A stretch of 37,190 bases of DNA, taken from positions 1 through 37,190 of IMG/VR virus record IMGVR_UViG_3300031994_000263, one strand, 5' to 3'. Made by a program: the position numbers and the translations under genes. The notes beneath the pieces are model-generated. The model was not told where the DNA came from. It did no database searches and worked only from the letters and a program-made list of their open reading frames with translations. Below, in pieces: positions 1-37,190 of the stretch; the stretch's first letter is position 1; each line of letters begins with the position of its first letter. Source of the DNA: a virus.

Positions 1-1
1 A

Positions 2-1804
2 ACTTTCTTTGTCCCTCCTACTGAATTTATTGGAAAACTTTACTATGAACAAAATGCAAATATTGAAAAAGAAACTTTAAAAAGTTATAATATAAATATA
101 TATACAACATCTGGACAAAAATCAATTGTAAAAACAGAATAGATATATACCAATCAATATAATCCTAATGAATTTTATTATTAGCTATTATATGACCTTG
201 ATAAATAGGTAAATTATACCTTAGCTTTTAATTATACAACAAATAATTTATATAAAGCAACTGAAAATTTTCAATTTATAATTGCTAAATAGGCAAGCAA
301 TAAATTAAATGTCGCAGCTTTTACCGCTACGCCAGAAGAATCAAATGGAAGTATTAAACTTGACATTAATTTTGGCTTATTACAAACTCAAAACGATTTA
401 AATATAAGACGGTCTTCTGCTAAGAGTAATTTTTTGCAATGGGAAACTTTAAAAACAATTTCTCATAACCGCGATTTAGAACATCTTTGGTATGATACTT
501 CTATTGAAAGCGGCGTTTGGTATAAATATAGAATTCAATAGGTAGGAGAAAATGGCAGAGTTGTTGATATTCAAGAACCAGTAATGTGTTTATTTGAAGA
601 TATTTTCTTAACTCAAGGAGATAGACAGTTAAAAGTTCAATTTAATCCAACAGTTTCTGATTTTAAATATAATATACCAGAATCTCAACAAGTGACTTTA
701 GGAGCGCAATACCCCTATATCAAAAGAAATGGTAATAACTATTATCGAACGTTCTCATTAAGTGGATTAGTTTCTGCATTAATGGATGAAATTCGTTGGT
801 ATGATCCTGGCCATTTAGATGGACAATTTTATAATAAAAATAGTATATAGCCATTTACAACAGCCAATGAACTTTTTGGAGATGCTGCGGCCGCCCTTCA
901 TAATGATTATAATCAAACAAATGATATTAGTTATTATGAAGATTATATTTATGAAAGAGAATTTAGATAGAAAGTTATGTAGTTTTTATATAAAAATAAT
1001 ATAAAACTATTTAGATCATTAACAGAAGGGAATATTTTAGTAAAACTAACAAATATAGCTTTTCAACCTATTGATACATTAGGTAGAAGATTATATTCTT
1101 TTTCTGCAACTGCTACTGAAATTGATAATAATATCTTATAGAATTTAAATACTAAATATAATCTTATTAATAAATGGTATTATACATACGCTAAATATAC
1201 TATTAGTGATAACTTTAGAAGTGGAGAATCGTTAATTGATAGATTTTATAAAGAGTCTGACCAACCTCAAGAAACTACTAATGTTATGGAGTTAAAGATA
1301 GATCATACGGTAGGACAAGATGTTGTTGTTTATGCAAAACCGATAAATAACATTAATCTTCTTAGATATTTAGCTCCAGCTAATGAATCTCTATATATAT
1401 ATTATTCTGATGCAGACCCTATTGCAGAAGCATATTTTTATGCAGTTCACTTAGATGAAGATGATCTAAAACTGCAAGAAGGTCATTATGACACTCCTTA
1501 GGATGTAGAAAATCCAATTGAATTTGGTGTTTATTCTATTGTAGATCATTATTTTATTAGAATTGATAGATATATATAGTATTTTAGAGAATCTGATTTA
1601 CTTACAACTTATCATGATGAAGTTTTATAGAATAGTATTGATAATAAAGATTATGATCTTTTAGTTGAATCTATGGAGCCAGTTTATTTTAATATGATTT
1701 ATTATAATGGAGAATGGCATCCATTGTTAGATAATAATGATATTATAATTGATGAATTTCCTGCTTCTGTTGAATTTAAATATAGAACTAAAAAGGAGGA
1801 TTAA
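2..1804 (+). CDS. Phage structural (baseplate/tail-like) protein, 5'-partial. It reads through about 13 in-frame TAG codons and stops at TAA 1802-1804.
   Basis: Frame 2 is open from position 2 to the TAA, apart from TAG. The ORF-track pieces 584..850 and 1286..1501 lie in this frame and are separated only by TAG. Function is inferred only from position in the late arm. Confidence 0.55.
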
Positions 1805-1806
1805 TT

Positions 1807-3714
1807 ATGGCTCATAATTTTCCATATTTAAATGATTCTTCTTTTTTAGAAAGATTTGATAAAATTAGATTAAAAGAACAATTTGTTAAATTAATTGTTT
1901 TAGATTTTTATTAGAATCCTATTCAATAGATTCAGGGAAAAGTAATAAGTGGCAACTTTAATTTAGATGGTTCTTCTTCTATGCGGCGGACAGGTAATAT
2001 AAATTTAATTGCGGATGATCTTGAAAATAATCTTACCGATACTAAGCATTTATTATCTATTAATAAAAAAATAGAAGTATTAATTGGTTTTACCAATACA
2101 ACCGGTGAATACCAATAGTATGATATGATATGGTTCCCTCAAGGGGTTTATCTTATTATTGCCGCAAATATTTCTAACAGTTTAAGTGGAATTAGCATTG
2201 CGTTAACTTTACATGATAAGATGGCTTTATTAAATGGAGAATGCGGCGGCACCCTTCCCGCGTCTATTATTTTAAGTGAAATTGAAGATATTGATGAAGA
2301 AGGAGAATCTGTAATAAGCAAACCCACTTTATATAGAATTATCCAATAGCTAGTTAATCATTTTGGCGGTGAACAGCTGGGGAAAATTATAATTTCAGAT
2401 ATTGATAATGAAGCCAGAGAAGTAATGAAATGGACTGGTTCAACACCTTTATATTATTATACTTCTATCGAAGAAGGACATCCTTATTATAGTTTTTCTA
2501 CAAATTATAATGAATTTATTGGAAGAGGTATATCTCCAGATGATATAAAACAATTTAATTATGGCGATGATGTAGGTTATATTCTAACAGATTTTTCTTA
2601 TCCAGGTGATTTAATTAGTAAAGCTGGCGACACAATCTGTTCTATATTAGATCAAATTAAAAATGTCTTAGGAAATTATGAATATTTTTATGATATAAAT
2701 GGAAATTTTATTTTCCAAGAAATTAAAAATTATTTAAATAAATCATATGCCAATTAGATATTAACTGATATTAATAAAGATAATTATTCAGTTGATTATA
2801 CAAGTGGTAAATCAGTTTATACTTTTGATGATTCTGATCTTATAATTTCTATTTCTAATTCTCCACAATATCAACAAATTAAAAATGATTTTATTATATG
2901 GGGAAAAAGAAAATCAATAAGCGGGAAAGAAATTCCTATTCGATATCATTTAGCAATAGATAATAAACCAAAAGTAGGAAACACTTATACAATTAAAAGT
3001 GTAATTGATTAGGATGATATATAGAAATTTGTTATAGATGAGGCGGGTACCCCTGTTACAACCTCAGACTTTCGTACTGAACTTCTCTTAAGCGGGGTCG
3101 CCGCTTAGCCATTCGCAACAGATAGCAATTATTATTATACAGAATTACAAAATGAATGGTCTAAAATATATGATGTAATGAATGGGAATTTTAAAAATTA
3201 GGCATTAGCGCACCCGAATGAAATAGACTTCTTTTTAGATATCATTGATGAAACTTAGACTGAAATTGGTCAATATGGAGTTCAAAATATAGGTCGTAGA
3301 ACAGTTGCTCTTGTTGATGATACGGTAAATTGTATTTTTGCTCCATAGATCCCTGATATAGTTATTATTCAATAGGGAACAGATAAAACCCAAGAACAAC
3401 AGCAATGGTGTTAGGACAGAAATCAGCCATATGTTCAAGTTAGAGATTAGGTTTATAGTATGTTATGGGAAGGCGGCATGTTAAAGCCCGCTTATGATGA
3501 AATTAAAAAAGAACTTTATCAATATACAACTTTTAATGAACAAGTTTCTTTAACGACTGTCCCAATTTATTATCTTGAACCAAATACAAGAATTACAATA
3601 CGAGATTCTGTAACTGGTGTTTATGGTGACTTTATGATTAAATCTATTTCAATGCCTCTTGATATTAATGGAACTATGAGCATCTCTTGTACCAAGGCTC
3701 TTGAAAGATTATAA
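1807..3714 (+). CDS. Phage structural protein of about 635 aa. It has about 15 in-frame TAG codons and ends at TAA 3712-3714.
   Basis: The ATG at 1807 lies 5 nt after the upstream stop. The RBS aaaaaggagga is at 1790-1800. The ORF-track pieces 2125.., 2425.. and 3460..3714 are all in frame 1 and joined only by TAG. Confidence 0.55.
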
Positions 3715-3720
3715 TTTTAT

Positions 3721-3749
3721 TTGACAAAATTAAAAAATTTTAATATACT
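3721..3749 (+). promoter_or_regulatory. Sigma70-like promoter with -35 TTGACA (3721-3726), a 17-nt spacer and -10 TATACT (3744-3749).
   Basis: Consensus hexamers with 17-bp spacing lie in the 3715-3880 intergenic region upstream of the gene at 3881. A 6-bp inverted repeat attgta...tacaat (about 3826-3852) lies between the promoter and the RBS. Confidence 0.45.
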
Positions 3750-3880
3750 AAATTAAAGAGGATAATATCTAGCTTACAAAAAATTTTGGACAAAAGCTAA
3801 TATTTCTTTTATAGTAATTTTTATATTATATTGTAGGGGACATAAGATCTTACAATAGGAAATAAAAGGAGAAATATTAT

Positions 3881-36022: not shown

Positions 36023-36717
36023 TGGGTTTAATTTATAAAGTTACAAATTTACAAAATAATTTAATTTATATTGGATTAACTTCTACTAGCTTATAGCTTA
36101 GAAGAAAAAGACATTATAATGAAGCTTTTTCAAACAAAACCAATAGTGATTTTCATAAAGCATTACAAGAATTTAAAGAAAAAGATTTTTCTTGGGAAAT
36201 AATTGAAGATAATATTCCTATTGAACAATTAGGAGAAAGAGAAAAATATTGGATTAAATATTATGATTCATATCATAATGGTTATAATATGAATTCTGGA
36301 GGAGCTAATGGAGATAATTTTAGAAATTGGAGAAAAGGTAATCCAGAATTAGCTTCTTATTATGCTAAACTTGGAAATCAAAAAATGAAAGAAATACTTC
36401 AACAAAATCCGTAGTTAGAATAGCAAAGAAAAGAAAATGCTAAAAAAAGTTGTATTAATTATTATAATACCCATAAAGAAGAAGTAAAACAAAAAAGCTA
36501 TGAAACCTATTTAAAACATAAAGAAATTGCTAATAAAAATTTAATAGAAGCAAATAAAAAACGTAGCAAGAAAGTTCTTTGTATTGAAACTGGAATTATT
36601 TATGAATCAGCTTCTGATGCGGCAAGAAAAAATAATTTATCTCAAGGAAATCTTTCTGCTGTTTGTCGTGGAGAAAGAGAAACTTGTGGTAAAAAACATT
36701 GGAAATATATTGAATAA
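36022..36717 (+). CDS. I-TevI-like GIY-YIG homing endonuclease of 231 aa with three in-frame TAGs. Its start overlaps the rnh stop codon (TAATG).
   Basis: The motif GLIYKVTNLQNNLIYIGLTSTSL*LRRKRH is GIY-YIG. The C-terminal KVLCIETGIIYESASDAARKNNLSQGNLSAVCRGERETCGKKHWKYI matches the I-TevI-type DNA-binding tail. The gene ends at TAA 36715-36717. Confidence 0.7.
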
Positions 36718-36745
36718 TAGGCAGATAAGCTAAAATTTTCAAATC

Positions 36746-36783
36746 TTATTCTTACTAATCATATAAATATAGCCATTTAACAA
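36746..36783 (+). repeat. A degenerate duplicate of the rnh 3' end (35972-36009, encoding ILTNHINI) located immediately 3' of the homing endonuclease gene. It is a likely insertion-site duplication or homing scar.
   Basis: The sequence ttactaatcatataaatat at about 36752-36770 matches about 35982-36000. Both translate to LTNHINI in frame. Confidence 0.6.
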
Positions 36784-36789
36784 AAAAGT

Positions 36790-36818
36790 TTGCTAAAATT
36801 AAAAAAATATGTTATAAT
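36790..36818 (+). promoter_or_regulatory. Promoter with -35 TTGCTA (36790-36795), a 17-nt spacer and an extended -10 TGtTATAAT (36810-36818).
   Basis: A TG dinucleotide lies at -15/-14 and the -10 hexamer is consensus. The RBS aaaggaga precedes ATG 36847. Confidence 0.5.
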
Positions 36819-36846
36819 ATAGTATAATATAAAAAGGAGAAAATAA

Positions 36847-37190
36847 ATGGCAGATAAACATTTATATGACGAGACTAGCATAGAGTCATTATCGCCCCTT
36901 GAATTTACAAGACTTCGTCCGCAAGTTTATGCTGGAGATTGTACTTATTCAACACAACTATTGGTTGAAATTGTGTCCAATGCTGTTGATGAATATCGTC
37001 TTGGTCATGGAAACCAAATTGATGTATCTATTGATAAAGATAAAATACGAGTAAGAGACTACGGTCAGGGATTCATTCCAAATTCATTTAGAGAAGATGG
37101 GAAAACAATCCTCGAAGCTGCCTTTAGTGTATTAAATACGTCTGGAAAATATAGAGAAGATGGCACATATGAAGGTACTTCTCTTGGATC
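36847..37190 (+). CDS. Type II DNA topoisomerase ATPase subunit (GyrB / T4 gp39-like, GHKL N-terminus), 3'-partial. It has no TAG in the visible part.
   Basis: The motifs LEFTRLRPQVYAGD, EIVSNAVDE, RVRDYGQGFIP and GKYREDGTYEGTSLG are the Bergerat-fold motifs of GyrB-family ATPases. Confidence 0.7.
   Translation, partial: MADKHLYDETSIESLSPLEFTRLRPQVYAGDCTYSTQLLVEIVSNAVDEYRLGHGNQIDVSIDKDKIRVRDYGQGFIPNSFREDGKTILEAAFSVLNTSGKYREDGTYEGTSLG

Follow-up and report, generated by a model that had tools for sequence, protein, structure and literature searches.

Comparative evidence for glutamate at the amber codon in a lineage of large rumen and gut phages

Results

Genes of the window and the sense reading of TAG

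The DNA analyzed here, hereafter the window, is the 37,190-bp viral stretch (32.4% G+C) deposited as IMG/VR record IMGVR_UViG_3300031994_000263, and the subject of this study is how the amber codon TAG is read in its genes. A preliminary description made from the sequence alone had proposed that TAG is a sense codon here and had favored glutamine; the first of these proposals holds, and in the lineage of the window TAG probably stands for glutamate, with TAA and TGA remaining stop codons. The source of the window appears to be a large gut or rumen phage with a genome of about 130-145 kb, belonging to a family whose lineages seem to have recoded stop codons independently.

When TAG is counted as sense, the longest open reading frame (ORF) grows from 838 to 2904 codons, the summed length of ORFs of at least 100 amino acids nearly doubles (from 7551 to 14533 amino acids) and the coverage of the window by such ORFs rises from 0.61 to 1.17. 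The same treatment of TGA or TAA gave no comparable ORF structure in the window. The resulting map holds 28 genes that occupy 34,812 of the 37,190 bases, about 94%, with 149 in-frame TAGs spread over 17 genes. Of the 27 complete genes, 23 stop at TAA, four at TGA and none at TAG, and TAA, the main stop codon, is never seen in frame.

The plus strand opens with a tail/baseplate-like gene (g1, 2..1804; phrog_30026; 12 TAGs) that is cut by the window start and has its full length of 759 amino acids in a relative (L009), followed by a tail protein of 635 amino acids (g2, 1807..3714; DUF5048, phrog_32343; 14 TAGs). Further along the same strand lie a small HExxH metalloprotease-like gene (g7, 6707..7021), whose TAG at 6932-6934 is codon 76 and whose HExxH glutamate is codon 58, a 738-amino-acid protein with a C-terminal GDSL esterase domain (g8, 7114..9330; 2 TAGs) and a NAGPA-like phosphodiester glycosidase recognized by Pfam (g9, 9834..10535; 2 TAGs). 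The minus strand carries a RuvC-like Holliday junction resolvase of 162 amino acids with a PHROG match (g11, 10885..11373; seven TAGs), a tail-fiber-like protein of 596 amino acids (g13, 11751..13541; 8 TAGs), a fiber of 1451 amino acids (g14, 13553..17908; 29 TAGs) and a tape measure protein of 2902 amino acids (g15, 18019..26727; phrog_34405; 56 TAGs), the last two of which end at TGA. On the plus strand again, two small membrane proteins (g23 and g24, 33220..33987; 6 TAGs and 1 TAG), the second of them holin-like, lie beside a 465-amino-acid endolysin (g25, 33992..35389) that combines GH25, CHAP and SH3_3 domains and has TAG at codons 123, 149, 172 and 309; downstream, a GIY-YIG homing endonuclease (g27, 36022..36717) contains three TAGs. 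The TAG counts given earlier for the endolysin, the resolvase and the homing endonuclease, and the lengths given for the tape measure and the fiber, agree with this map.

Several of these genes match known profiles straight through their TAGs. Three TAGs lie inside the GH25 match, which extends over the entire profile (positions 1-180 of 180; E = 6.4e-23), and Pfam recognizes CHAP and SH3_3 domains in the same protein; the RuvC-like protein matches positions 1-158 of 161 of phrog_827 across all seven of its TAGs; the homing endonuclease has a Pfam/PHROG profile match across its TAGs; and the tape measure has a match to phrog_34405 (7.8e-65). TAG is thus a sense codon, because the coding density reaches about 94% and domain matches run full length across TAGs, and a reading of the type of translation table 15 yields far better coding density than fragmentation at TAG. 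That fragmentation under table 11 is the only observation in favor of regarding the interrupted genes as pseudogenes or assembly artefacts. Against this stand frames of up to 8.7 kb that are broken by TAG alone and never by TAA or TGA (from base composition, the chance of 2902 codons without either is about e^-171), assemblies from other samples that are 99.6-100% identical to the window, and dozens of relatives that keep the same frames with their TAGs at different positions. This explanation is effectively excluded: the TAG-containing genes are real, and they are concentrated in structural, lysis and other late functions.

Glutamate at the TAG sites

Relatives were gathered by IMG/VR scans anchored on the RuvC-like gene and on g17, which gave about 160 loci, and the codon-level comparison covered the DNA of about 80 IMG/VR relatives. 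Codons at the TAG sites of the window were read from the relatives' DNA alone and database translations were left out, because ENA and Logan proteins had been translated with code 15, which makes any glutamine found there circular. For the same reason we rejected as evidence the mixture of E and Q that appears in the columns of database RuvC homologs, of which a search with the RuvC-like protein returned 515, on contigs of up to 140 kb.

Codons were first compared with those of two TAG-recoded relatives (L014 and L015) whose tape measure and fiber are about 44% identical to those of the window. Among 288 informative pairs, TAG stood opposite E 81 times, D 33 times and Q 28 times, and an empirical substitution likelihood placed E above Q by 93 log units. 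Across the relatives, the codons found at the TAG sites of the window were GAA (585), GAT (263), AAA (176), TAG (166), GAG (142), CAA (115) and CAG (20). At the 22 sites where one residue accounts for at least 70% of the relatives, that residue was E in ten cases and Q in one.

Individual sites point the same way. Codon 62 of the RuvC-like gene (KVIM-TAG-EVRP; 11188-11190) is also TAG in 10 relatives, and the other 71 all have E; in a profile alignment E66 of E. coli RuvC, a catalytic residue, aligns with this codon, and this catalytic column is TAG in 11 clade genomes and E in 56 of 56 outgroup sequences. Codon 141 of the same gene (NDD-TAG-ADA, 10951-10953, in the DD-E-ADA motif) is E in 67 of 69 relatives. 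In g7, all 26 relatives have E in the column of the TAG at codon 76, and the column of the HExxH glutamate is itself TAG in three clade relatives. The three TAGs at codons 62 and 141 of the RuvC-like gene and at codon 76 of g7 were confirmed in the nucleotide sequence itself. Codon 280 of the fiber is E in 17 of 17 relatives, the columns of TAG codons 36, 41 and 181 of g2 are E in 28-30 of 33, and in the endolysin codon 123 is GAA in the two closest standard-code homologs (on contigs of bacterial metagenome-assembled genomes, MAGs) and codon 309 is GAG in the closest one. Codon usage fits as well: there are 52 glutamate codons per 1000 in TAG-rich genes compared with 70 in TAG-free genes, and adding the 17.5 TAGs per 1000 to the former gives 69.7.

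For a test based on whole columns, we took outgroup columns that are at least 80% conserved for a given residue and counted those with the recoded stop in any clade member. In the clade of the window, TAG occurred in 14 of 36 columns conserved for E, compared with 1 of 15 for Q, 1 of 40 for D, 1 of 28 for K, 1 of 39 for L and none for any other residue, and the log-likelihoods over 107 columns were -251.6 for E, -279.0 for D and -294.4 for Q. These comparisons show selection treating TAG as glutamate, and overall we regard the evidence for TAG as Glu as strong.

These results bear directly on the possibility that the window uses code 15, in which case a Gln-type amber suppressor would insert glutamine, as it does in the crAss-like, Lak and other recoded phages. 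For phages, no amber reassignment other than glutamine has been reported, distant relatives within the family use TAG as Gln and carry Gln-like tRNA(CUA) genes, and E and Q swap readily at variable sites, such that Q is the majority residue at 6 of 81 TAG sites of the window. On the other hand, the column test leaves Q 43 log units below E, TAG occupies the catalytic glutamates of both the RuvC-like resolvase and the HExxH protease, and the same method correctly gives Q in a sister clade, so that we consider glutamine very unlikely here. The alignment of TAGs in the GH25 domain with Gln in Cpl-1, on which the glutamine assignment had partly leaned, was not reproduced, as Cpl-1 fell outside the significant PDB matches. 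It had also been argued that TAG replaced CAG, given that TAG-rich genes use little CAG. The depletion is real (7.0 versus 22.4 CAG per 1000 codons), but it fails to name the amino acid because AAG and GAG drop alike, as part of a general shift from NNG to NNA.

Three further sources were set aside. PDB structures added nothing for the GH25 domain, whose TAG sites occupy variable columns of the alignments, opposite E, S or D; no PDB sequence match was found for the RuvC-like protein; and a test of synonymous single-nucleotide polymorphisms at TAG sites was dropped because contigs that are 99.6-100% identical offer too few differences.

Sister lineages as controls

The family contains two lineages that served as positive controls. 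They resemble the window in having homologous RuvC, tail and g17 genes with the same bias toward late genes, and they differ from it either in the recoded codon (TGA to Trp) or in the amino acid (TAG to Gln). In clade B, in which TAG is read as Gln (L040, L044, L048, L066 and L074), TAG was found in 5 of 9 conserved Q columns and in none of 28 conserved E columns, with Q best by 19 units. In the TGA clade (which includes L045, L056, L060, L064 and L072), TGA was found in 10 of 11 conserved W columns, with W best by 24 units. Our method can thus tell Q from E, because clade B returns Q in the same pipeline. In a neighbor-joining tree of RuvC sequences the Glu clade was monophyletic, sister to standard-code members and apart from the Gln clade; since the two amber-recoded clades are separate in this tree, the two amber recodings in the family look independent.

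The search for a decoding tRNA

Several observations weigh against a simple assignment of TAG to glutamate. A minority of the TAG sites of the window fall on columns conserved for H, T, N, K, D, P and, in one case, Q, most of these non-Glu columns being supplied by a fiber alignment of little depth; the column counts are linked by phylogeny and are not independent events; and all the evidence for glutamate is comparative. In addition, neither a tRNA(CUA) nor any other tRNA was found in the window by ARAGORN, and Rfam detected no RNA there at all. A custom anticodon-loop scan of the clade loci likewise found no tRNA(CUA), and tRNAs of any kind were missing from the 75 of 134 kb available for the clade genome IMGVR_UViG_3300021399_000007 and from the other clade contigs. 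The ARAGORN runs covered every fetched locus and the Rfam runs seven clade loci besides the window, and the clade genomes were walked with five anchors: a ligase, a 368-amino-acid protein, a Thg1-like gene, a DnaE-type polymerase and a GH-like gene. A rightward extension of about 16 kb of the window's own strain (L174, L200) also held no tRNA. The earlier statement that the window lacks a suppressor tRNA is therefore correct, and since no tRNA(CUA) occurs in the window or in the clade DNA examined, the decoder is one that we infer.

The sites at which tRNA genes occur in relatives can be compared directly. Relatives carry a tRNA array between the Thg1-like gene and g17; in the clade members L097 and L098 they lie side by side with nothing in between. 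A suppressor tRNA lies between RNase H and topoisomerase II in L110 (19974-22459); in the window, this slot is taken up by the homing endonuclease and an AT-rich, promoter-like spacer, and no trace of a tRNA was found there.

In total, 13 tRNA(CUA) genes were found, all in distant family members and several apparently of Q type; no suppressor tRNA was seen in the Glu clade or in the fetched parts of clade B. The 1-72 pair was mismatched in 10 of the 13 (L110, L115, L116, L121, L141, L147, L148, L158, L163 and L172), as U.U, A.A, U.C, C.U or G.A and mostly together with G73, compared with 4 of 205 other tRNAs of the same loci. A weak 1-72 pair with G73 is what we take to be the classical identity signature for glutaminyl-tRNA synthetase (GlnRS). 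The mismatches look like tuning for recognition by GlnRS, which would fit glutamine decoding in the distant lineages.

The Thg1-like gene belongs to the tRNA-His guanylyltransferase family (Pfam Thg1, 6.7e-30) and is conserved throughout the phages of this family (80 loci), where it is found immediately upstream of either the tRNA array or g17 (L097 9122-9946; L147 2317-3252). It is conceivable that it is linked to 5′-end editing of the mismatched suppressor tRNAs.

The lack of a suppressor tRNA in 56% of a clade genome also raises the possibility of ambiguous decoding, in which the phage would disable release factor 1 (RF1) and near-cognate host tRNAs would insert a mixture of residues, glutamate being the one best tolerated by selection. 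The TAG sites on non-Glu columns would agree with such a mixture, and suppressors were detected in only about 40% of TAG-recoded genomes by Borges et al. (bioRxiv 10.1101/2021.08.26.457843). However, TAG occupies a strictly required catalytic glutamate in many genomes, where a mixture would mostly inactivate the enzyme, and the 56 TAGs of a single 2902-amino-acid protein demand efficient and accurate decoding. Furthermore, near-cognate reading of UAG favors Gln, Tyr, Lys and Trp over Glu, leaving glutamate outside the favored set. We regard ambiguous decoding as unlikely.

Another residue, such as aspartate, pyrrolysine or a modified acidic amino acid, is highly improbable. Aspartate ranks second among the aligned residues, yet TAG occurs in only 1 of 40 conserved D columns. 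Neither the density of TAG (17 per 1000 codons) nor its Glu-specific placement fits pyrrolysine, and a Pfam scan of 20 window proteins gave no Pyl-related match, the remaining eight (g6, g7, g12, g14, g15, g24, g26 and g28) having been scanned against PHROGs only.

Distribution of TAG and a late code switch

The use of TAG as Glu, as favored above, is confined to part of the gene set. The genes with at least two TAGs, which are of late type except that the class of g9 and g10 is unclear, hold 145 TAGs in 8263 codons, and in the tail, fiber, lysis, resolvase and homing-endonuclease genes about 17 of every 1000 codons are TAG. The 12 TAG-free genes, which are largely of early type, total 2808 codons, enough for about 49 TAGs if the codon were used as often as in late genes. 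They comprise nine MVP-like, RNA-repair, RNase H and topoisomerase genes together with three (g3-g5) that lie inside the structural region.

Among the TAG-free genes, g3-g5 (3881..6006, plus strand; phrog_21718, 16490 and 20016) are of unknown function and higher G+C content, and g16 is also of unknown function. The anchor gene used for the family loci, g17 (27470..29941, plus strand), encodes 823 amino acids with MVP-shoulder and SPFH domains, and is followed on the same strand by the block g18-g22 (30043..33151), which comprises a pyrimidine-dimer glycosylase, an RNA ligase, a small ORF, an AAA_33 kinase resembling polynucleotide kinase and a metallophosphoesterase. RNase H (g26, 35510..36022) and the start of a GyrB-like topoisomerase II (g28, 36847..37188), which runs past the window end, complete the set, both on the plus strand.

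A host that natively reads TAG as Glu was rejected as a simple explanation because these 12 genes avoid TAG throughout their 2808 codons. The absence of TAG from early-type genes fits a late code switch, and Borges et al. interpreted such a pattern as a timed switch of this kind. Under this scheme the early genes would be readable by the standard code of the host, the infected cell would then gain the capacity to decode amber codons, and the TAG-containing late genes would be translated only afterwards. The decoder could be a tRNA with anticodon CUA that is charged by the host glutamyl-tRNA synthetase (GluRS), and it may be encoded in the remaining part of the genome or supplied otherwise.

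Other features of the window and its family

Coding-density profiles indicated that the family contains TAG-recoded, TGA-recoded and standard-code members; the contigs of the relatives span 100-150 kb, come from rumen and gut samples, and interleave these three kinds of lineage. No close relative of the window was found among INPHARED phages, and neither the window nor the fetched loci contain a terminase gene. Gene order is mosaic inside the Glu clade (L097, L098 and L026 compared with window 10500-27400). The block of RuvC-like gene, fiber and tape measure is inverted in the window, where it abuts g17; in L097 and L098, g17 is abutted by the Thg1-like gene and the RuvC-like gene shares its strand. 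The gene g17 itself is conserved family-wide and, among deposited phage genomes, matches only the huge phages LR756500, LR756501 and LR756503 (462-735 kb). The g18-g22 cassette (30043-33151) resembles an RNA/tRNA repair set.

Positions 4000-9000 of the window form a G+C-richer stretch (0.37-0.40, versus 0.26-0.33 elsewhere) that spans the TAG-free genes g4 and g5 and the TAG-poor genes g6-g8, and the uneven use of glutamine codons noted in the preliminary description (for example, 17 CAG and 5 CAA in g4) originates there. In g23, five of the six TAGs lie within the first 22 codons (33220-33290). The true start of this gene is probably downstream, with the N-terminal run of TAGs upstream of it, because codon 5 is TAA in L004 and L175, whose contigs are otherwise 99.9% identical. 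The GIY-YIG gene sits between RNase H and topoisomerase II (36022-36860), and the sequence GGCAGATAA, found at 36720 just past the endonuclease stop, is repeated at the start of the topoisomerase gene (36848), which looks like the footprint of an insertion. The DnaE-type DNA polymerase III alpha of clade relatives is encoded by two separate ORFs (L201 14493-15827 and 16964-19654) with a gap of about 1.1 kb that contains an ORF of 224 amino acids; this arrangement may reflect an intron or a homing-endonuclease insertion.

The public ENA and Logan entries for the clade (P0001-P0120) show Q at the catalytic glutamate of RuvC and at other glutamate positions; if TAG is Glu, these proteins are systematically mistranslated.

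With regard to the host, the Gram-positive assignment made earlier is plausible, given the GH25, CHAP and SH3 architecture of the endolysin and its homologs in MAGs of Ruminococcus, Oscillospiraceae and Lachnospiraceae; as a hint, this makes a host among the Clostridia plausible. The best match of the endolysin in genome collections (L213; JBGUOB010000098.1, a 38 kb contig; 46% identity) has no in-frame stops and is binned to a rumen MAG of Candidatus Cryptobacteroides (Bacteroidales). Host assignments from MAG bins need caution, because this contig is probably a mis-binned phage.

Discussion

The window shares much with the amber-recoded phages described so far, namely the crAss-like phages, the Lak phages and the clades of Borges et al.: structural and lysis genes carry most of the TAGs, the standard code is kept in early genes, TAA and TGA serve as stops, and coding density jumps once TAG is sense. 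It differs from them in that the alignments assign Glu and not Gln. For the crAss-like phages, code 15 has been validated by metaproteomics (PMC9523058). Borges et al. observed only TAG to Gln and TGA to Trp where the code of a phage differs from that of its host. A suppressor tRNA that matches the recoded codon is present in about 40-50% of the reported cases. Borges et al. also described recoded clades that infect Firmicutes, so that a Firmicutes host, which the preliminary description had treated as a distinguishing feature, no longer sets this phage apart.

The family also recalls the Agate clade of Borges et al., which has lineages of about 127 kb from cattle, pig and tortoise, genomes of about 127-154 kb and a mixture of codes 11, 4 and 15. 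Going by its published description, the family of the window resembles it in genome size, animal-gut origin, mixed codes, a recoded homing endonuclease and late modules scattered over the genome; the TAG-recoded Agate members were treated as code 15, unlike the Glu clade. The phage phAss-1 ("Phassvirus"; PMC10607447), with a 136 kb genome, TAG read as Gln, three Sup-CTA tRNAs and probably a Clostridia host, is likewise similar in genome size, amber-recoded virion genes and presumed host, and differs in its use of Gln and its suppressor tRNAs; it is not detectably homologous at g17, for which no homolog was found in the phage collection outside the huge phages.

Beyond phages, TAG stands for Glu in the nuclear code of peritrich ciliates (NCBI table 30, TAA and TAG to Glu). 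That code resembles the window in the meaning of TAG and differs in being eukaryotic and nuclear and in also reassigning TAA, the main stop codon of the window. Glu-inserting amber suppressor tRNAs were reportedly engineered in E. coli by Kleina, Normanly, Abelson and Miller around 1990; such suppressors are a precedent for a CUA tRNA chargeable with Glu by a bacterial GluRS, albeit as laboratory constructs and not in a natural phage. Our full-text literature searches found no report of TAG to Glu in phages or bacteria. They returned TAG to Gln and TGA to Trp or Gly for phages, and a reassignment of TAA and TAG to Glu only as one blamed on contaminating sequence in archaeal assemblies.

Taken together, we consider it likely that UAG as Glu is a natural code, unreported for phages and bacteria, of a monophyletic group of ~134-kb rumen and gut phages that exists beside independent sister lineages with UAG as Gln and UGA as Trp, and in which the tRNA array has been lost from its usual sites and the decoder may be unusual. 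If true, this would be the third stop-to-sense reassignment in the repertoire of phages, and it would contradict the working view that phages with a recoded amber codon invariably read it as glutamine. This view is built into gene callers and databases, such that prodigal-gv and table 15 put Q at a catalytic glutamate.

Borges et al. argued that GlnRS and tryptophanyl-tRNA synthetase are intrinsically susceptible to hijacking, and the present case would add GluRS to the synthetases that can be hijacked. Hosts that make Gln-tRNA by way of a non-discriminating GluRS and GatCAB may provide a one-step route between the Glu and Gln outcomes. Natural amber suppression with glutamate would also be of interest for genetic-code engineering. 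Finally, a single family that includes lineages with the standard code, UGA to Trp, UAG to Gln and UAG to Glu would constitute a natural experiment on how genetic codes change.

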